Positions 770-29,383 of a DNA stretch of 32,000 nt are shown here, piece by piece. Position 1 is the stretch's first letter, and the number at the start of each line of letters is the position of its first letter. Where the stretch lies: positions 73,381-105,380 of the forward strand of contig NZ_QWEI01000009.1 of assembly GCF_003515775.1 (NCBI RefSeq). Direction: 5' to 3'. Made by a program: the position numbers and the translations under genes. The DNA is from Ureibacillus yapensis. GTDB lineage: Bacteria > Bacillota > Bacilli > Bacillales_A > Planococcaceae. The notes beneath the pieces were generated by a model. The model had not been told where the DNA came from. It searched no databases and saw only the letters and a list, made by a program, of their open reading frames with translations.

Positions 770-891
770 TCCAACTTTTGAAATTAATGTTACTTGATTG
801 CAGCAAAATTAAGATATGAATTTTTACTCCTACTTCACAACTTTTCCTCTCTCGATTCTGCCATCCTAATCTCTTTAAAGGTTATTCCACC

Positions 892-950
892 ATCTGGTCC
901 ATTAATGAAAAAAGTGCTGATCCATATTACAGAATTGCGCCCGATTGCAG
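892..950 (-). repeat. dispersed hairpin repeat, long form
   Basis: atctggtcc-attaatgaaaaaa-gtgctgatcc..gaattgcgccc-gattgcag. A6 tract gives U6 after the hairpin on the minus strand. Lies 94 nt downstream of the stop of 1044..1430. Confidence 0.8.
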
Positions 951-1043
951 ACTATATAACCCTCAAGTTTGTTGAAGAATGTAAACACATTATAGAAAAT
1001 ACAAGTCATATCATTTACTTAACTTTAATTCAAATTCTTCTAC

Positions 1044-1709: not shown

Positions 1710-1715
1710 ATTATT

Positions 1716-1776
1716 AAATGGCCCTTTTTATGATAGGAATGCTGATCCTATTACAGAATCGCGCCCGATTGTTTAA
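1716..1776 (-). repeat. dispersed hairpin repeat, long form (gctgatcc subfamily)
   Basis: aaatggccc-tttttatgataggaat-gctgatcctattacagaatcgcgccc-gattgttt. Confidence 0.8.
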
Positions 1777-1821
1777 GCATTGAACATATTGAACAAATAT
1801 GGTTCATGTTGAATTTACGAT

Positions 1822-3497: not shown

Positions 3498-3821
3498 AAT
3501 TATATTCTCTCCTTATGTAAAGTTTGTATTTGCTTTCTAATGGCAATTCACTCGTGGGAATGTCGCAGATAGCCTATCTTGGTTCCTCTTTCTGCAGCAC
3601 CATGAATAGACCTTCACTTTAAATTTGATTCCCCACCCGTATAAAAATAAACTTCATTTCAAATAAGGTTAGATTAATAAAAGCAACAATCGTCAGTTTT
3701 TTTACGGAAGAAACCCACTCACTTCCAATCCGTTCCAATCGTACAGAAATGAGTCCTTTTCTGAGCATACGAACGTATTTCTCCGAAGAAGGCAATTAGT
3801 GTGCGGAAGGGCGGCAAGCTC

Positions 3822-3883
3822 TTGGCCTTCATAAAAACAAACGCTGATCCTTATTGCTGAATCGCGCCCCTTAATGGAATAAC
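3822..3883 (-). repeat. dispersed hairpin repeat, long form with alternative right end
   Basis: cttggcc-ttcataaaaacaaa-cgctgatccttattgctgaatcgcgcccc-ttaatggaataac. Ends 8 nt from the stop of 3891..4511. Confidence 0.75.
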
Positions 3884-3890
3884 TGCACTA

Positions 3891-4511: not shown

Positions 4512-4677
4512 TCTAAAAAGAACCTCCCTCTATGAATTCAATCATTACACTAAACCATTAAAACAATTTATATTTTTTAATTACGTTGGATGACTTAAAG
4601 TATATTATATATTTTCACAAACTCTTAAAATTTAGGATGAGATAATTTTCTTTGGAGAAGATGCTCCACAATCTCCC

Positions 4678-4747
4678 TCTTTTCATGAAGAAAGTACGCT
4701 TTCCTAATTTCAGAAAAGCGCCCTTTTATGGAATAACTAAATTTGTT
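4678..4747 (-). repeat. dispersed hairpin repeat, long form with alternative right end
   Basis: acaatctccctc-ttttcatgaagaaagta-CGCTTTCC-taatttca-GAAAAGCG-ccc-ttttatggaataac. Confidence 0.75.
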
Positions 4748-4796
4748 CTCATTAATAAAACCAATTATTTCATCAAATTACCGGTACTTCGAGATT

Positions 4797-4832
4797 AAGA
4801 AAAAGGCGACAACTATTATTTAGCTGTCGCCC
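4797..4832 (-). terminator. intrinsic terminator of the SEDS gene
   Basis: Minus strand reads GGCGACAGCT-aaataat-AGTTGTCGCC followed by TTTTCTT. Sits 30 nt after the stop codon. Confidence 0.8.
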
Positions 4833-4859
4833 TTTTTATCATCATTCTGATTTTTGACT

Positions 4860-6194
4860 TTAAATGTTTATATCATCTGCTATCGTTGGTTCCACAATAT
4901 CCTTTCTTCGATAAACATTTAAAATGAACCCTAAAACAGCAGCATAAAAAAGGATTGCACTTCCTCCATAACTAATAAATGGCAGGGAAACTTCCATGAT
5001 GGGCACGATTCCAAAGGCCATCAATATATTCCAAGTAGTAGGAACGGCAAATAATACAGAACCACCGATTACGATTAATCTCCCATAAAGATCTTTTGTT
5101 TTAAATGCATTTTTTGAGATTCTTAAAATAAAAATCAGCAGAACCAAGCAAAGACCGATTCCGAATGTCCAACCAAGAGAATAGACGAGGAAGGGGAAAG
5201 CAAAATCTGTATGTGATTCTGGCAACAATTGAAATTTCAAATCATTATTAAGCCCGTTACCGAACCATCCCGCTTCTGCAAGTACATTCCTAACGACCAT
5301 ATACATATATCCGGCTCCATTTGGATCGGCATTTGGGTTTATAAAAGTAGATAATCTAGTAAGAAAATAACTTTGGTGTGAGGTCGTAGTAATAATGATA
5401 ATGATGAAGATGATACCAGCCACTAGATTTGATACGACTAGGTTGATAGCTAATTTCTTATGAACACGTGCAAATGTAAACATTCCTAGTAAACAGAAAA
5501 AGTAAATGACCCCAACCATAAAGTTTGGCACTATCATGTAGAGCAATATGGGAATCCAAAATAAAACAAGAAGAAATCCTTGTTTTTTCCAACTGCGAAA
5601 CTCATTTATTTTGTTAAAAATACCGGCCCAAGCCAGGAAAAAGAAAAATAAACTCAATATAGTGCCATCGACCGTTAGGCCTGGAAGTGAAATCCATCTT
5701 TTTGCTCCGTTGACCGTATATCCAAATAAATAGAGATATACGTGAATGAACAAGCCGATAGCATAAAAGTGCATCCACCAATTCTTTGATTTTTGATAAT
5801 TAAAGGAAAGAAACCCAATAATCACAAGAGCAGCTAAGGAGTACCAGATAGCTTGTCTCCCCATAATATGGGTGATTGATGATGAAATCCCAGGAATTCC
5901 ACCAACTAACGGGAGAAAACTGATACTAGCAAAAATAACAAATAAAACAATTAGAATCCAATCCATTTTTGGCTTATGAAGGTGATTTAATTTCTCTCCA
6001 ATAATAAATGGATTTCCCATTTCTTGAATGGCCTTTTCTTCTGAATCTTCTTCAGAAAATCCTCTTTTTTTGTAAGATTGACTTAACTCTTGCAGATGAT
6101 GAGTAAGCTCTTTTTTTATCCTGTTGTGGGCCTCCGTAGATTTGACTTTGGAAGTGACTTTGCTTAAAAATTCTTCAAATTTGGGAGAACTCAT
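4860..6194 (-). CDS. SEDS-family (FtsW/RodA/SpoVE) protein with an N-terminal cytoplasmic helical domain (DUF1700/HAAS-like)
   Basis: C-terminal SLPFISYGGSAILF SEDS signature and about 10 TM segments. The first 75 aa or so (IKKELTHHLQEL...GFSEEDSEEKAIQEMGNP) match the helical prefix usually found beside PadR regulators. The ATG overlaps the upstream stop (ATGA). Confidence 0.85.
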   Translation of the reverse strand: MSSPKFEEFLSKVTSKVKSTEAHNRIKKELTHHLQELSQSYKKRGFSEEDSEEKAIQEMGNPFIIGEKLNHLHKPKMDWILIVLFVIFASISFLPLVGGIPGISSSITHIMGRQAIWYSLAALVIIGFLSFNYQKSKNWWMHFYAIGLFIHVYLYLFGYTVNGAKRWISLPGLTVDGTILSLFFFFLAWAGIFNKINEFRSWKKQGFLLVLFWIPILLYMIVPNFMVGVIYFFCLLGMFTFARVHKKLAINLVVSNLVAGIIFIIIIITTTSHQSYFLTRLSTFINPNADPNGAGYMYMVVRNVLAEAGWFGNGLNNDLKFQLLPESHTDFAFPFLVYSLGWTFGIGLCLVLLIFILRISKNAFKTKDLYGRLIVIGGSVLFAVPTTWNILMAFGIVPIMEVSLPFISYGGSAILFYAAVLGFILNVYRRKDIVEPTIADDINI

Positions 6195-6613
6195 AAAGAT
6201 GCCTCCGTTATGAAGGGATTAAGGGATAGTCCTTGTTTAGTGGTATCTTGTTTATAAGTAGCTAAGTATTTTTTACCTTTGGAGTTTAAAGAATAATATT
6301 TCTTGTTATTTATCCAATTTGAAGTAAGCATTTCTCTATTTTCTAATAGATGTAGCAGTGTATAAAGCTGCCCTTCATTTTTTTGGAAAGCACGTTCATT
6401 TTTTTGAAAAAGTTGGACAGAAATATTGTAGCCATCCTTTGATTCGTGCTGAACAGATTCTAATATAGCTATAATGGTTTCTGTATGAAATTGTGATTGC
6501 TGATTCGTACGAATGGCTTCACGCACGGCATTTTTTCTTTCATTAGAAAAAGAAAAATCCTTGAATATTGATTTTTCCATCGAACTCTTCAGGTTCTTAA
6601 ATGGATCATTCAT
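6191..6613 (-). CDS. PadR-like winged-helix protein with an N-terminal extension, in the position of an anti-sigma factor
   Basis: IIAILE..KDGYNISVQL..EGQLYTLLHLLENREMLTS..KKYYSLNSKGKKYL fits the PadR wHTH pattern. No TM segment and no Cys/His zinc motif. Coupled to both neighbouring genes. Confidence 0.7.
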   Translation of the reverse strand: MNDPFKNLKSSMEKSIFKDFSFSNERKNAVREAIRTNQQSQFHTETIIAILESVQHESKDGYNISVQLFQKNERAFQKNEGQLYTLLHLLENREMLTSNWINNKKYYSLNSKGKKYLATYKQDTTKQGLSLNPFITEASL

Positions 6614-6616
6614 CTC

Positions 6617-7168
6617 CTAAACCTCCTCTATCATCTTGTCTTTTAATAATTCCTTCGCACGCTTTAATCTCGTTTTTAATGTATTTATATTTACTGAAGT
6701 AATCTTGCTTATCTCTTTTAAAGACAGTTCTTCATAATAATGTAGAAATACGACTTCTCTGTACTTTAGAGGCAAATTCATGACGGCATTCGTTAAGCTA
6801 TTTTCTTCACTATGCTTGATAACCTCCTCTTCCACCTGTTTTGACTTAGAAGGAATATGGTCAAATACTTTATTGCTAAGCGTTATTTTGCGATAATGCC
6901 AGCTTCTTAAATAGTCCTTGCAGTGATTACTCGCAATGCGATATAGCCAAGTTTTTATTGTTGACTGCTGATTAAATTGATTTAATTTTTCATAACACTT
7001 TATAAATATCTCTTGTGCTAAATCTTCTGCTATGGTTCGGTTTTTTACATATGTATATACAAGATGCAGGATATCATCGCTGTATTCACGCATTAATTGA
7101 TCAATAATCTGCTCATGCTCATCCAGCATCATTTCATCTGTCACCGCCAATTGGTTTAGTTCATTCAT
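6617..7168 (-). CDS. ECF-type sigma-70 family RNA polymerase sigma factor
   Basis: Region 2 (DLAQEIFIKCYEKL...TWLYRIASNHCKDYLR) and region 4 (LSLKEISKITSVNINTLKTRLKRAKELL) are present. 183 aa. Confidence 0.9.
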   Translation of the reverse strand: MNELNQLAVTDEMMLDEHEQIIDQLMREYSDDILHLVYTYVKNRTIAEDLAQEIFIKCYEKLNQFNQQSTIKTWLYRIASNHCKDYLRSWHYRKITLSNKVFDHIPSKSKQVEEEVIKHSEENSLTNAVMNLPLKYREVVFLHYYEELSLKEISKITSVNINTLKTRLKRAKELLKDKMIEEV

Positions 7169-7195
7169 CTAGTTGTCACCCCCTCATATATCTTA

Positions 7196-7222
7196 GACGA
7201 AGCTACCCTTCATTCAGTTTGA
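7196..7222 (-). promoter_or_regulatory. candidate ECF-type (autoregulatory) promoter
   Basis: Minus strand reads TCAAAC-N17-CGTCTAA, about 25 nt upstream of the sigma ATG. This follows the AAC-N16/17-CGT architecture typical of Bacillus ECF promoters. Confidence 0.55.
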
Positions 7223-7265
7223 AAAAATATAATTTTTTTATGACCGTCTGTATTCTAGAGTATAA

Positions 7266-7300
7266 GTGGAAAAAGGAACAACCTCTTATCAGATTGTTCC
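7266..7300 (-). terminator. hairpin plus T-run, related to the short form of the repeat family
   Basis: Minus strand reads GGAACAATCTGATAAGAGGTTGTTCC followed by TTTTTCC. The arms carry the AACAATCTG / CAGATTGTT motif of the repeat termini. Confidence 0.5.
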
Positions 7301-7493
7301 AAAATGTTGTAGGTGGTAGGTTAGGTTGCTTTTAAGACTACTTATTCGACTAATGATCCCTTATTTCTCAGAAGGAACTGTAATTGCAACAGTTCTAATC
7401 AGAATTGCATATTGTTGTAAATCTGCATTTACCGTTACCAATTAGTTTAAGTGTAGACCTCCACAATATCTACTTTGCAAAATAATTGTTATT

Positions 7494-7558
7494 AAACAAT
7501 ATGGCCCTTTAGCTGAAGAAGGCACAATTCCTTTTCAAGAATTGCGCCCGAGTGTTGA
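7494..7558 (-). repeat. dispersed hairpin repeat, long form
   Basis: aaacaatatggccc-tttagctgaagaagg-CACAATTC-cttttcaa-GAATTGCG-cccgagtgttga. Lies 44 nt downstream of the stop of 7602..8336. Confidence 0.85.
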
Positions 7559-7601: not shown

Positions 7602-8336
7602 TCATTCTCCTTCAACGATTTTTGCAAATTCATCAAGAGTTGTTGAATAATTGATATAAATCCGTGGCAAAAGATAGAGTTCGTCTTTTTTGCCCTTCTC
7701 AGAAAATAGTTCAGGTGTTGTCGTAAGTCCAAACAAATAGTATTTCTTCGTTTCTGCTACCACCTTATTATTGAAATTTCCGTAGGGGTACGCAAGAACA
7801 TTCACTGGTTTGCCCGTTATTTTTTGAATTTTATCTTTGGATTCTTTCAGTTCGTATTCATAATTGTTTATTTTCGTCAAATAAGGATGTGTAGCAGTAT
7901 GAGATTGAATTGAGATGATTCCCGAATCAGCCATCATTTTTAAATCCGATTTCGATAATCGGTTGGAGCGACCGATAAAGTCAGCAATAACAAAAATGGT
8001 ACCACTTGGTTTAAAACGGTCGGTTTTCAGTTTTTGAAAGATATCAAATGCATTGAGATTGTTTTTGTACCCATCATCAAAGGTAATGAAAATGGGTTTG
8101 TTTACTTTATCAATGTCTTGCCATCGATCAAAAGTTAATAATGTGAAGCCATGGTCTTTTAGATAAATCATTTGTTTCTCGAAATTTTTCGGTGTTACAT
8201 ATAACTCCTTAGCACCATGACCTTTAAATTCGTCAATTGAATGATATATTAAAATAGGTACTTTACGTTGAGCAGAAACTTGTGATGGAAGAATTAATAT
8301 AAGAAGACAAAGGAAAAACATTGCAACCTTTTTCAT
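7602..8336 (-). CDS. secreted polysaccharide deacetylase (NodB homology domain)
   Basis: Signal peptide MKKVAMFFLCLLILILPSQVSA, ITFDDGY motif and HTATHP motif. GAGGAG RBS. Confidence 0.9.
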   Translation of the reverse strand: MKKVAMFFLCLLILILPSQVSAQRKVPILIYHSIDEFKGHGAKELYVTPKNFEKQMIYLKDHGFTLLTFDRWQDIDKVNKPIFITFDDGYKNNLNAFDIFQKLKTDRFKPSGTIFVIADFIGRSNRLSKSDLKMMADSGIISIQSHTATHPYLTKINNYEYELKESKDKIQKITGKPVNVLAYPYGNFNNKVVAETKKYYLFGLTTTPELFSEKGKKDELYLLPRIYINYSTTLDEFAKIVEGE

Positions 8337-8545
8337 AAAACTCCTCGCTTTATATCTTTTTTTATTATTCTTTATTATCCCTCAAAAGCATGGGGCTATT
8401 CTGACTTCTCCCATAATACATTCCATCTACCATTGATCAAGTGTGACTTTAATAATCCTGCTCTTAAGTTTAATTCCTTCGACTAATCTCCAAAAATATA
8501 CTAGCATTACCATAAGTATTTTATTTTTCTTGATATTTTTCCTCT

Positions 8546-8610
8546 ATTAAATGGCTCTTAATTGAAAACAAGCGCTAATCCGTATTACAGAATCGCGCCC
8601 GATTGTTGAG
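8546..8610 (-). repeat. dispersed hairpin repeat, long form
   Basis: attaaatggctc-ttaattgaaaacaa-GCGCTAATC-cgtattaca-GAATCGCGC-ccgattgttgag. Confidence 0.85.
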
Positions 8611-8715
8611 GATTGTTATTGAACTAAAGCCTCCGTTACTTTAAGTACATCTTTTCACAATATCCTAAATTAAATTTTTTAAACTTACAGGAATTGGGTT
8701 AATCCGCTATATTTA

Positions 8716-8738
8716 CCCTTTCGCCAAGAAAGGGCGCC
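8716..8738 (-). repeat. hairpin-only relative of the repeat / weak terminator
   Basis: CCCTTTC-gccaa-GAAAGGG-cgcc lies 40 nt after the stop of the serine hydrolase gene. No clear U-tract. Confidence 0.35.
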
Positions 8739-8777
8739 ACTTTTATTCTCGATATGCACACGTTAATGGAAGATACT

Positions 8778-9860: not shown

Positions 9861-9888
9861 TTACGATTTTGACTGATACCATTGTTCC
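9861..9888 (-). promoter_or_regulatory. weak ECF-like promoter candidate upstream of the serine hydrolase gene
   Basis: Minus strand reads GGAAC-N18-CGTAA. The spacer is one nt longer than in the sigma gene's own candidate promoter. Confidence 0.25.
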
Positions 9889-9949
9889 ATTAAATGGCCC
9901 TTTAATGAAAAAAGCACTTTCCTTATTTAAGGAAAGCGCCCTTTAATTT
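9889..9949 (-). repeat. dispersed hairpin repeat, long form (best-folding copy)
   Basis: attaaatggccc-tttaatgaaaaaag-CACTTTCC-ttatttaa-GGAAAGCG-ccc-tttaattt. Minus strand: GCGCUUUCC/GGAAAGUGC (9 bp, one G:U) then U6. Contains the stop codon of 9943..10368. Confidence 0.9.
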
Positions 9950-10368
9950 AATAAATCTAAAACCACTTCTGTAATCCTTTGCCTTAATACTAATTGAGCT
10001 TTTCTAGCTGTTATATTTAAGTCTTCAATATCTTCTGTTTGCTCTTCCCAAGATAATTTGGTTTCATTTTCTAATTTAACCACTTCATCCTCTATCCAAT
10101 TTCGATAATCCTTATAAATTTTTTCAGCTTTTAATTCGCTTCTGAATAGATTAGGTACCTGATAATGTAAACTGGCAAGCTGTTTTTGGAATTCTATTTC
10201 TCCTTGTTCATTTATCATTTTATTAAATTCAAAAAGTAGTTCTTCTATTAGTTTTTTAGGAAACTTTTCATGTTTCATTTTTTGTTCTAAGTTAGATACA
10301 GTAATTTCATCTAAATTATTATTCTTAATACTTAAAAAATCATTAAAGAATTTATTAAGCTTGCTCAC
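9943..10368 (-). CDS. hypothetical helical cytoplasmic protein
   Basis: ORF of about 141 aa. Start moved to a GTG 8 nt after GGGGAGG. No family recognised. Confidence 0.5.
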   Translation of the reverse strand: MSKLNKFFNDFLSIKNNNLDEITVSNLEQKMKHEKFPKKLIEELLFEFNKMINEQGEIEFQKQLASLHYQVPNLFRSELKAEKIYKDYRNWIEDEVVKLENETKLSWEEQTEDIEDLNITARKAQLVLRQRITEVVLDLLN

Positions 10369-10444
10369 AAAAAACACCTCCCCTAATAACTACGATTATA
10401 TCAGTTGGAAGCTATTATAGAATCATAATTACACATTAAAGTTA

Positions 10445-10475
10445 TTCAACAATCTGGCCCGATTGCTGAATAAGG
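10445..10475 (-). repeat. dispersed repeat, short form (termini only, no hairpin core)
   Basis: TTCAACAATCTGGCCCGATTGCTGAATAAGG equals the left arm joined to the right arm of the long form, fused at GCCC. Confidence 0.8.
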
Positions 10476-10552
10476 ATTGTGCCGTAACTGTTGAGTTTTG
10501 AATACTTATAGAAAATTAAAAAGAGGCTGGGACATAACTAGCTTCAAATATT

Positions 10553-10600
10553 GAGAAAGGTGAATTGAGCGTCCTCAATTTCACCTTTCTCTGTTTTTTG
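10553..10600. terminator. strong hairpin terminator downstream of uxaC, with its T-run on the plus side
   Basis: GAGAAAGGTGAATTGAG-cgtc-CTCAATTTCACCTTTCTC then tgttttttg on plus. On minus the tail is AATATTTGAAG. Confidence 0.7.
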
Positions 10601-10801
10601 CTATTAATTCTTATGAAGCAGATTTAAACAAGTGCATACTTTCATTCGCTCGACAAGGTCCACCACGTGTTGCTCGGTAAAGACGACACCGACTTTTTCC
10701 AACGCGTCTACCGTTTGGAAGACGATTCTCAATCACCAGGTATTCGGATTCTTCTATGTTTACAAACTACGCGACAAGCGGTCCATTTTTTCGCTTTCGA
10801 A

Positions 10802-16242: not shown

Positions 16243-16316
16243 TTTAATCTCCTTTATTAACTTCTGATTTCTTTGACTATAAGTATACTTCTTCACAATA
16301 CCTTTTCGCGTTACTA

Positions 16317-16384
16317 AAGAATCTGGCCCTTTAATGGAAAAAGCACTTTCCTTATTATTCAAGGAAAGCGCCCGATTGTTGAAG
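16317..16384 (-). repeat. dispersed hairpin repeat, long form (near-consensus)
   Basis: aagaatctggccc-tttaatggaaaaag-CACTTTCC-ttattattca-AGGAAAGCG-cccgattgttgaag. Lies 75 nt downstream of the stop of 16459..16986. Confidence 0.9.
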
Positions 16385-18839: not shown

Positions 18840-19193
18840 AGTCGTTAGACCTTATAACCAATAAATATAGTTTCATCTGTTAAGGACACACAATGAAAAA
18901 TTCCGATTTGTTAACACTGAACAACCAAATGTACAATAATACCATTGCATTATGTGCCAATTCATTTTTTAAAAATAATTTGGGGTATAAAAAAACCGCC
19001 CCCTTCAGATTATATTAATTCGAAAGAGTCAGCTTCCCACACTATGTAGTTATTACTTACTTTAATAAATCCGATGTTTTGCCTTCATAATTTCCTTATC
19101 CCCTAAACCGTAGGGATATTTTAAGCATTTTAGTTTAAAATACTATCTATTAACATGAATACCTAGTTTTCTTATTGATTCAATATTATTCCT

Positions 19194-19257
19194 GAAAATG
19201 GACCGCTTACTGAAAAAGACACAATTCCTCTTCCAGAATTGCGCCCGATTTTTAAAG
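19194..19257 (-). repeat. dispersed hairpin repeat, long form
   Basis: gaaaatggaccgc-ttactgaaaaaga-CACAATTC-ctcttcca-GAATTGCG-cccgatttttaaag. Minus strand: 8-bp stem with one G:U, then UC-U5. Confidence 0.85.
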
Positions 19258-19386
19258 ATAGTTATCCATTCAACTAAAGTCCACGTTAACTCACAAATAG
19301 ATTGTTCACTATCTGTCCCTAAGTAAGATTAGTTCTAATTAAAAATTCGAAGGTTTTATAGTCCCCGTTAATGTAGAAAATTAAAA

Positions 19387-19661: not shown

Positions 19662-19692
19662 GTTCAACAATCTGGCCCGAACACTGAATAAG
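19662..19692 (-). repeat. dispersed repeat, short form
   Basis: GTTCAACAATCTGGCCCGAACACTGAATAAG. Confidence 0.75.
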
Positions 19693-23583: not shown

Positions 23584-23828
23584 TTAATACACCCTTATCT
23601 GTTTGTGAAGAGATTATAAAAACGATTCATACATCATTTTTTACAGCTTTAATGTTATACTATTTCTTTATTAATTTAATTATTATTTCCATTAAATTCT
23701 GCCAAATTGTCCTAGATTATATCCAAGTTCTACTTTAGTTAAATTCCCTTTGAACAAAATGCTTATGCTTACCTTAATTACTAACTTCACAGTCTCTTAT
23801 AAACTATAACCTATATATCTAGGTATTG

Positions 23829-23898
23829 TTCAAATCTGTTGCCCTATTCATGAAAGAAAGACGCATCCCTTATTTCAGAAAAGCGCCGGATTGTTGAG
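23829..23898 (-). repeat. dispersed hairpin repeat, long form
   Basis: ttcaaatctgttgccc-tattcatgaaagaaaga-cgcatcccttatttcagaaaagcgcc-ggattgttgag. Lies 53 nt downstream of the stop of 23951..24346. Confidence 0.75.
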
Positions 23899-23950
23899 TT
23901 TAGGTTTTAGATTTATTGCACGTACTATCGAATAAATAATTAAGGAATCC

Positions 23951-24450: not shown

Positions 24451-24506
24451 CTTATTCAATTAAAAGGCACTTTAGCTGAACAAGATAAACCCATGCTTAC
24501 CGCACC
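24451..24506 (-). repeat. dispersed hairpin repeat, degenerate copy
   Basis: cttattcaattaaaaggcac-tttagctgaacaag... The left flank and tttagctgaa module match copies 1716 and 7494. The right half is eroded (ccgcacc). Confidence 0.45.
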
Positions 24507-27134: not shown

Positions 27135-27208
27135 AGTTGTCCCAGATCATTTCTCTATTCATGAAGACAGACGTATCCCTTATTTAGAAAAGCACCCAAT
27201 TGCAAAAG
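27135..27208 (-). repeat. dispersed hairpin repeat, long form with an 11-nt insertion
   Basis: gttgtccc-(agatcatttct)-ctattcatgaagacaga-cgtatcccttatttagaaaagcaccc-aattgcaaaag. Closest to copy 23829. Confidence 0.65.
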
Positions 27209-27320
27209 ATTGTGATTTAAAACCATTTGGTAAAAATTTAAAAATTAAAGTGTCTATTTTTTTAAAGCATGCTAAATTCGAGATGTATCAAACAAGTAAA
27301 AATAAGAAAGGAAGATAATA

Positions 27321-28886: not shown

Positions 28887-28913
28887 GTTAAATGGCCTGA
28901 TTGCTAAAGAAGG
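28887..28913 (-). repeat. dispersed repeat, short form
   Basis: TTAAATGGCCTGATTGCTAAAGAAGG is the left-end variant ATTAAATGGCC joined directly to the right arm GATTGCT. Confidence 0.65.
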
Positions 28914-28936: not shown

Positions 28937-28995
28937 TAGGTGCCCAATTAAAAAAAGACACAATTCTTCATTAAGAATTGCGCCCTATTCTGGAA
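28937..28995 (-). repeat. dispersed hairpin repeat, long form
   Basis: aggtgccc-aattaaaaaaaga-CACAATTC-ttcatta-AGAATTGCG-ccc-tattctgg. Gives U7 on the minus strand. Contains the stop codon of the 51-aa ORF. Confidence 0.8.
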
Positions 28996-29140
28996 TTAGC
29001 TTCTGCATAATATCTTCAAATTTTATATATTCAGATTTCATTTTCCCTTTAATTATTTCCATAATTTTTTTAGCTTCTTCTCTTGAATAGCCTTGTAAAA
29101 TCAACTGACAATAAGCATACAAATATTCTTCACTAGTCAT
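28985..29140 (-). CDS. possible 51-aa small protein, below the track threshold
   Basis: Uninterrupted ORF MTSEEYLYAYCQLILQGYSREEAKKIMEIIKGKMKSEYIKFEDIMQKLIPE. No convincing SD. Confidence 0.3.
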   Translation of the reverse strand: MTSEEYLYAYCQLILQGYSREEAKKIMEIIKGKMKSEYIKFEDIMQKLIPE

Positions 29141-29285: not shown

Positions 29286-29316
29286 GTAAAGGACAATTTT
29301 CTTAAAAAGTTGCACC
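29286..29316 (-). repeat. hairpin module of the repeat family (first of a tandem pair)
   Basis: gtaaaggaCAATTTTcttaAAAAGTTGcacc. Confidence 0.5.
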
Positions 29317-29383
29317 TGAATTTGGCTCTTTTCATGTACAAAGACACCTTTCTTTCTACAAGGCTGCACCTTTAGTTTGATTC
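29317..29383 (-). repeat. dispersed hairpin repeat, long form (diverged)
   Basis: tgaatttggctc-ttttcatgtacaaaga-caccttt-ctttctac-aaggctgcacc-tttagtttgattc. Confidence 0.6.

Follow-up and report, generated by a model that had tools for sequence, protein, structure and literature searches.

Short palindromes in a repeat-rich array of Ureibacillus yapensis as probable seams between mobile gene cassettes

Introduction

Integrons are the textbook means by which bacteria stockpile and swap single genes, with each cassette carrying a whole attC site (R''-L''...L'-R') and crossover occurring at G/TT of R'. Modular repeats of another kind are found in pneumococcal BOX elements and E. coli BIMEs, which are intergenic and hairpin-forming and consist of end modules enclosing zero, one or several inner modules of ~45 nt. 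In archaea, dimers of the chromosome are resolved by XerA, a single recombinase that acts on one near-palindromic site whose spacer measures 6 bp. Among the described systems of gene exchange, integrons are nearly absent from Firmicutes (PMC9024848), and two reports on Acinetobacter plasmids (PMC12907356, PMC13141974) describe pdif modules that are shuffled between replicons and carry 11-6-11 arm/spacer/arm sites for a Xer-family enzyme.

The locus compared with these systems here is a stretch of 32,000 nt from Ureibacillus yapensis (hereafter the window; C40:73381-105380, genome 3.79 Mb, 39.5% GC). A first-pass annotation of the window had noted short sequences that it took for the fused termini of a repeat element whose hairpin core had been excised or inserted at GCCC. 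On balance, these short palindromes are better read as bare seams between mobile gene cassettes, in an integron-like system that is probably served by a Xer-type recombinase.

Distribution of the repeat family

Alignment of 11 long copies resolved a clear family of ~80 nt, and an nhmmer profile built from these copies found 82 copies in the genome, which were clustered rather than dispersed. Almost half (39 of the 82) lie on contig C40 between 27 and 152 kb, on one strand except for one weak match, and the remainder at the ends of contigs C12 and C23, on three small contigs (C13, C14 and C26) and in a handful of short runs, with a single copy on the 993-kb contig C1. The genes of the array, which are of mixed accessory functions, are nearly all on the strand opposite to the repeats, and each repeat is found 0-150 nt past a stop codon. 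The window probably belongs to a large chromosomal array of mobile modules that covers at least 125 kb of C40. No part of the window matched Rfam at gathering scores.

Within the genus, a 16-mer of the element was present in all 24 sampled species, at 1-68 copies each, and in a complete genome the repeat clusters switch strand with the replichore. An exact scan of public genomes revealed further arrays in Cytobacillus, Lysinibacillus, Solibacillus, Viridibacillus, Rummeliibacillus, Halalkalibacter, Metabacillus, Virgibacillus, Peribacillus and the B. cereus group.

Anatomy of the junction sites

The short junctions of the window are as follows.

8745..8770, minus strand: decayed short junction bounding a beta-lactamase-fold cassette at its 3' end, TTCCATTAAC-GTGTGC-ATATCGAGAA
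10445..10470, minus strand: short form, a bare junction site with, on the gene strand, left arm TTCAGCAATC, spacer GGGCCA and right arm GATTGTTGAA
15745..15775, minus strand: short-type junction with left arm TTCAACAATC, spacer GGGCGC and a degenerate right arm, no hairpin
19662..19688, minus strand: short form with degenerate left arm TTCAGTGTTC, spacer GGGCCA and intact right arm GATTGTTGAAC
28887..28908, minus strand: decayed short junction, TTTAGCAATC-AGGCCA-TTTAACTAAG

The short form at 10445 is borne out by direct reading of the window, in which positions 10445-10470 hold the letters TTCAACAATCTGGCCCGATTGCTGAA, a 10-6-10 palindrome on the plus strand (TTCAACAATC-TGGCCC-GATTGCTGAA). When up to 3 mismatches were allowed, the 26-mer palindrome pattern was matched nowhere else in the window and not once in 100 shuffles. 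The site is predicted to fold into a stem of 13 bp with a loop of 6 nt (z -4.4). GCCC on the plus strand is GGGC on the gene strand, where a short form reads as left arm, GGGCCA, right arm. The site separates a cassette holding a 144-aa ORFan (9943-10377), for which there was no Pfam match and no counterpart in the genomes of 31 species of the same genus, from the next unit. The two other loci that had been listed as short forms are real copies in a poorer state: at 19662-19688 only one arm and the spacer are intact and there is no fold (z 0), and the copy at 28887 is decayed.

Long copies hold a hairpin core of 41-47 nt between two GCCC repeats. On the gene strand, these read as left arm TTCAACAATC, GGGC, then GC with a hairpin and a T run ending CATTAAAG, then GGGC, CA and right arm GATTGTTGAA. 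The following were found in the window.

885..952, minus strand: long form
1713..1785, minus strand: long form, left arm of the first family and right arm of the second
3812..3889, minus strand: long form, left arm of the second family and right arm unrecognisable
4660..4744, minus strand: long form at the 3' seam of the sigC cassette, with second-family left arm TTCCATAAAA
7492..7559, minus strand: long form bordering the sigC/PadR/SEDS cassette at its 5' seam; the homology with 7 other genomes begins at GGGC, ~7507
8542..8610, minus strand: long form
9885..9951, minus strand: long form with second-family arms on both sides, TTAAATTAAA ... TTTAATGGAA
16314..16383, minus strand: reference long form, with sites 16358-16383 and 16314-16339 around a core of terminator hairpin and T run
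19186..19267, minus strand: long form
23826..23907, minus strand: long form
27136..27218, minus strand: decayed long form
28948..28997, minus strand: partial long form
29286..29383, minus strand: decayed core, possibly two in tandem

The reference copy, which the first-pass annotation had placed at 16317, has its core flanked by GGCCC and GCGCCC just as described there. Read on the gene strand, the core forms a hairpin with a T run behind it and was picked up as terminator-like. Its hairpin opens with 10 nt (GATTCTTGAA and similar) that are similar to a right arm, and its tail is similar to a left arm, so that a 10-6-10 site can be recognised in every seam. The same cores, identical in sequence, recur at many positions and in other genera.

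Inspection of all 82 copies revealed a second arm family (TTCCATTAAA left, TTTAATGGAA right) beside the first (TTCAACAATC left, GATTGTTGAA right, on the gene strand). The copies at 3822, 4678 and 9889, in which the right end had appeared to restart the left module, are genuine but better read as members of this second family. Arms of the two families combine freely, both at one junction and inside one cassette, which indicates that the palindromy is not a hairpin constraint and that the arms are not the inverted ends of one transposon. Since the families mix at a single junction, the termini belong to the neighbouring gene cassettes and not, as had been supposed, to a hairpin element. With regard to an origin as a MITE or mobile insertion cassette, many cassettes have ends of different arm families, hence not inverted repeats, and the shared GGGC could pass for a 4-bp duplication. 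Two further assignments were revised: the hairpin at 7275-7300, formerly listed as a variant, contains no GGGC, lies inside the sigC cassette and is kept as internal sequence in all those of the eight other genomes, seven in number, whose copy reaches there, and of the two tandem hairpin modules at 29286-29383 one is a decayed core and the second beside it is only possible.

The family occurs well beyond chance expectation: genome-wide, 57 junctions had GGGC between two strict arms and a control with the core reversed gave 0, with the arm consensus sets taken from the same data in which they were counted. The spacers among these 57 strict 10-6-10 sites were chiefly GGGCGC (35) and GGGCCA (19). 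Automatic typing of junctions at 7/10 arm matches was too noisy and was dropped.

Boundaries of shared DNA

The main evidence for the cassette reading comes from the ends of shared DNA, among them those of the sigC cassette.

4745..7507, minus strand: cassette of three genes (ECF sigma, PadR-like and SEDS-like), carried at 94-98% identity by 8 genomes from at least 4 genera

This cassette was found in at least five different contexts. At its 5' seam, homology begins at GGGCC in all seven informative copies, and the seam is short in four genomes (G179, G139, G264 and G256) and long, each time with a different hairpin core, in four others including this one (among them G045 and G006). One and the same seam being short in some genomes and long in others, the short and long forms are alternative states of a single seam; the earlier expectation that both forms would be found at the same locus is thus upheld, with the same cassette junction occupied by both in different genomes. 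The 3' end of the cassette falls at TTCCATAAAA followed by GGGC, beyond which a core comes next in three genomes and a right arm directly in two. In one copy the cassette stops short at a GGGCG within its own terminator, where a core is joined on.

Similar boundaries were seen for other shared units. A gene shared with Lysinibacillus at 92% identity spans GGGCC to GGGCGC, with a seam that is short in Lysinibacillus and long here, and a 97% identical block of Cytobacillus and Bacillus begins at GG(G/A)C|GC, preceded on the left by a core tail in one genome and by a cassette arm in the second. Homology of the beta-lactamase-fold, NmrA-like and 209-aa cassettes also breaks at GGGC, and the 3' seam of the first of these is an intact short form in genome G203 (locus L195) and decayed at 8745-8770 here. 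The deacetylase and ADH genes, by comparison, break away from the repeats or occupy ordinary chromosomal contexts in other genera. In total, four types of junction were seen (arm to arm, arm to core, core to arm and core to core), with only GGGC in common. This shared sequence is too short for homologous recombination, which points to site-specific exchange.

The consistent GCCC boundary that the first-pass annotation had set as a test is therefore present at the shared-cassette junctions, as GGGC on the gene strand. The core does come and go at this boundary, as had been suggested, but it is not the only unit to do so, since whole gene cassettes and the recombinase module described below share it. 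In ~1.9 Mb of array sequence there was no pair of loci in which the same two neighbours occur with and without a core, and two candidate indels proved to be unrelated leader differences, which leaves simple core insertion and deletion by slippage as possibilities. Slippage deletion of cores is possible as an additional process.

A candidate recombinase

A 14-kb array with 14 repeats in U. composti has, as its last co-oriented gene, one for a 280-aa tyrosine recombinase, which is 87% identical to a recombinase located beside repeats in a Bacillus sp. array. This protein scores 226.9 bits against the XerA-type model NF040815, passing the cut-off of 220, and its R, K, HxxR, H and Y catalytic motifs are visible when read by eye against known motifs; its nearest solved relative is P. 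abyssi XerA. Homologues at 76-93% identity occur in many Bacillaceae genera, including on a plasmid, and were found in 89 of 301 family genomes, many as fragments and in some genomes at up to 5 copies.

Across 20 loci, the recombinase gene with its leader and terminator forms a unit of 1.06-1.12 kb. GGGC delimits this unit at both ends in 12 of the loci and at one end in further ones. The unit is preceded by the left arm of a cassette and followed by a right arm, as is the case for a core, and repeat matches lie within 1.5 kb in 16 of the 20 loci. The unit starts with the GC-hairpin that is also found in the cores and ends in sequence similar to the core tail, which makes the cores look like miniature derivatives of the unit. 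Arms of a third family (ACTAAC/GTTAGT) flank a recombinase subfamily of 63-65% identity that is common in another genus, an association suggesting that enzyme subfamily may pair with arm type.

There is no such recombinase in the genome of U. yapensis, where the best matches are XerC and XerD at 30-33%, and the arrays here are therefore orphan. Within the genus, repeat count does not track the recombinase gene, as illustrated by genomes with 68 (G024) and 33 (G006) copies, neither of which has the gene; in one complete genome (G010), XerC and XerD are the only intact ones. Other tyrosine recombinases near repeats in the U. yapensis genome (C23:55.5-57.9 kb and C5:18.4 kb) were rejected as candidates, being degraded or adjoining dif and showing no consistent linkage to the arrays. 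No serine recombinase was found inside an array.

A likely mechanism that brings these observations together takes each seam as a 26-bp site, which on the gene strand consists of a 10-bp left arm belonging to the upstream module, a 6-bp spacer GGGCNN and a 10-bp right arm belonging to the downstream module. A short form is then one site joining two gene cassettes, and a long form is two sites around an ORF-less module of 41-47 nt whose hairpin and T run may double as the terminator of the upstream cassette. Modules would be cut and rejoined within GGGC, presumably by way of circular intermediates, which would account for all four junction types. The likely catalyst is the 280-aa XerA-like tyrosine recombinase, which would act on arm-spacer-arm sites as Xer enzymes act on dif and which itself appears to travel as a GGGC-bounded module in the arrays of related genomes. 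The orphan arrays of this genome would be either frozen or served in trans. Against the cassette reading stand the lack of the recombinase in this genome, the repeat counts that do not follow its gene, and the deacetylase and ADH genes with their other contexts; a single enzyme would also need to accept two rather different arm families.

Alternative explanations

An alternative that we regard as unlikely, albeit deserving some weight, is that only the recombinase element and its miniature cores are mobile, inserting at GGGC within a pre-existing palindromic site, while the gene units are never excised but pass between genomes by ordinary horizontal transfer, with insertion hot spots doing no more than marking their limits. 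This resembles the first-pass idea of core insertion with a 4-nt repeat. The core-like ends of the recombinase module, its position between a left and a right arm as for a core, and the presence of the same cores at many places, also in other genera, are all in keeping with such insertion. It is harder to reconcile with gene units that occur in at least five contexts with homology ending at GGGC on both sides and with differing neighbouring cores, with two unrelated cassettes joined directly by short forms, and with the one truncation at an internal GGGCG.

Slightly less credit is due to the explanation that the repeats are a terminator family akin to REP, BIME or BOX elements, in which short forms arise by slipped-strand deletion between the GCCC repeats and genes are shuffled by homologous recombination after DNA uptake. 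Direct repeats around a hairpin are a classic slippage substrate, and such repeats do flank the hairpin here; the modular build with its iterated core, the hairpin and T run on the gene strand, and the plentiful arrays in genomes that have no recombinase would likewise be as expected. However, the copies are clustered, with just 1 on the 993-kb C1, there is no Y1/RAYT transposase in the genome, the junction types have only 4 nt in common, breakpoints fall at GGGC instead of being spread over 80 nt, and the recombinase module has the same boundaries. Single-strand transposition of the IS200/RAYT type, with REP/REPIN repeats, was ruled out, with no match to PF01797 (Y1/HUH) in a genome whose completeness is scored at 100%.

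A classical integron cassette array with attC sites, which the co-oriented accessory genes each followed by an imperfect palindrome and the outer ends resembling RYYYAAC/GTTRRRY might bring to mind, is scarcely credible given the lack of IntI, exchange at a central GGGC and not at GTT, arms drawn from different cassettes and the near absence of integrons from Firmicutes (PMC9024848).

Relationship to described systems

Under the preferred reading of the seams as cassette borders, the likeness to integrons, sedentary chromosomal ones included, is considerable: there are long co-oriented arrays of accessory cassettes, each of which ends in an imperfect palindromic site, ORF-less cassettes and many arrays that lack a recombinase (cf. 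CALINs, the integrase-less attC clusters), and cassettes with exact boundaries at a short conserved core are common to distant hosts. However, the recombinase here is XerA-like and fails the IntI model (TIGR02249, cut-off 265), against which it reached 104.6 bits and the best proteins of the U. yapensis genome, XerC/XerD, 87 bits. An attC site is carried by one cassette, whereas homology here breaks at the central GGGC of a 26-bp arm-spacer-arm site whose arms come from two cassettes, with families mixed, and exchange is placed at GGGC and not GTT. No platform of attI and Pc with a divergent integrase was found; the recombinase gene is itself a module, being the last co-oriented gene of the U. 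composti array and internal in other genomes, and the hosts are Bacillales. The cassettes are also large, with up to three genes, and those of sigC and ADH have their own terminators inside.

Genes bounded by arm/6-bp spacer/arm sites, 10-6-10 here, recall the pdif modules, and the junction sites share the arm/spacer/arm architecture of Xer/dif modules in general. The pdif sites mimic host dif, use host XerC/XerD and alternate in orientation; here, by contrast, the sites are all in direct orientation and are unlike the dif-like site of the genome (C23:55338), which by sequence comparison has no similarity to the junction site, and a dedicated single recombinase is the candidate enzyme. Mimicry of host dif was rejected on this comparison. 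XerA is the best-matching protein family (NF040815) and solved structure (4a8e, 5hxy) for the array recombinase, but the archaeal system differs in that there are here hundreds of sites between cargo genes and a recombinase gene that is mobile and patchily distributed. BOX elements and BIMEs, compared by description only, follow the same modular plan as these repeats but are dispersed genome-wide and are not borders of horizontally shared gene units.

In a broader sense, it is an even question whether Bacillales (Ureibacillus, Lysinibacillus, Solibacillus, Cytobacillus, Halalkalibacter, the B. cereus group and others) own an integron-analogous gene-capture system, in which a mobile XerA-like recombinase would swap cassettes, ORF-less terminator modules and its own gene at arm-GGGCNN-arm sites, with arrays of more than 100 kb persisting as orphans after loss of the enzyme. 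Searches of the literature by sequence and by concept found no description of such a system. If true, this would be a parallel to integrons in Firmicutes with a different recombinase and site, and would help to explain the exchange of accessory genes among soil and spore-forming Bacillales; the accessory genes here comprise, among others, those for a beta-lactamase-fold protein, for transporters and for regulators, and a sigma-factor operon. It would also provide an annotation rule for cassette boundaries in these genomes, and the compact 26-bp site with its small single recombinase could possibly serve as a genetic tool. An odd 26-nt palindrome would in this way become a map of where modules start and end.

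Further observations

The polysaccharide deacetylase gene at 7602-8336 (loci L162-L166) is cassette-borne here and in genomes G080 and G248, and is present at ~90% identity in five other family genomes in an ordinary chromosomal context with its own terminator; it may illustrate how a gene is captured into a cassette. Positions 8611-8745, with a long form on one side and the decayed short junction on the other, are a stretch of ~135 nt with no ORF that resembles a small ORF-less cassette. A further junction-like site, absent from the first-pass list, lies at 24455-24480 (TTCAGCTAAA-GTGCCT-TTTAATTGAA) between a DUF4275 gene and an SLH glucosaminidase gene.

Beside the short form at 10445, a second repeat of ~100 nt occupies 10511-10615, with AAAGAGGCTGGGACA followed by a strong plus-strand terminator hairpin. 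Only one copy is present here, but many contig ends in genomes of the same genus match it at 75-91% identity, which suggests that it is probably a multi-copy mobile element there.

The dif-like site at C23:55338-55365 has 3 mismatches to B. subtilis dif and adjoins a frame-split tyrosine recombinase and a 480-aa recombinase-like ORF, and this locus is probably the replication terminus with a decayed integrated element. Finally, a variant family of sites, with arms TTCAACTAAC / GTTAGTTGAA and spacers GGGTGC / GGGGCA, was observed at loci L141, L145 and L147 (genus g20) and L199-L204, in genomes where the variant sites lie side by side with first-family junctions and the recombinase genes are antisense to the orientation of the sites.
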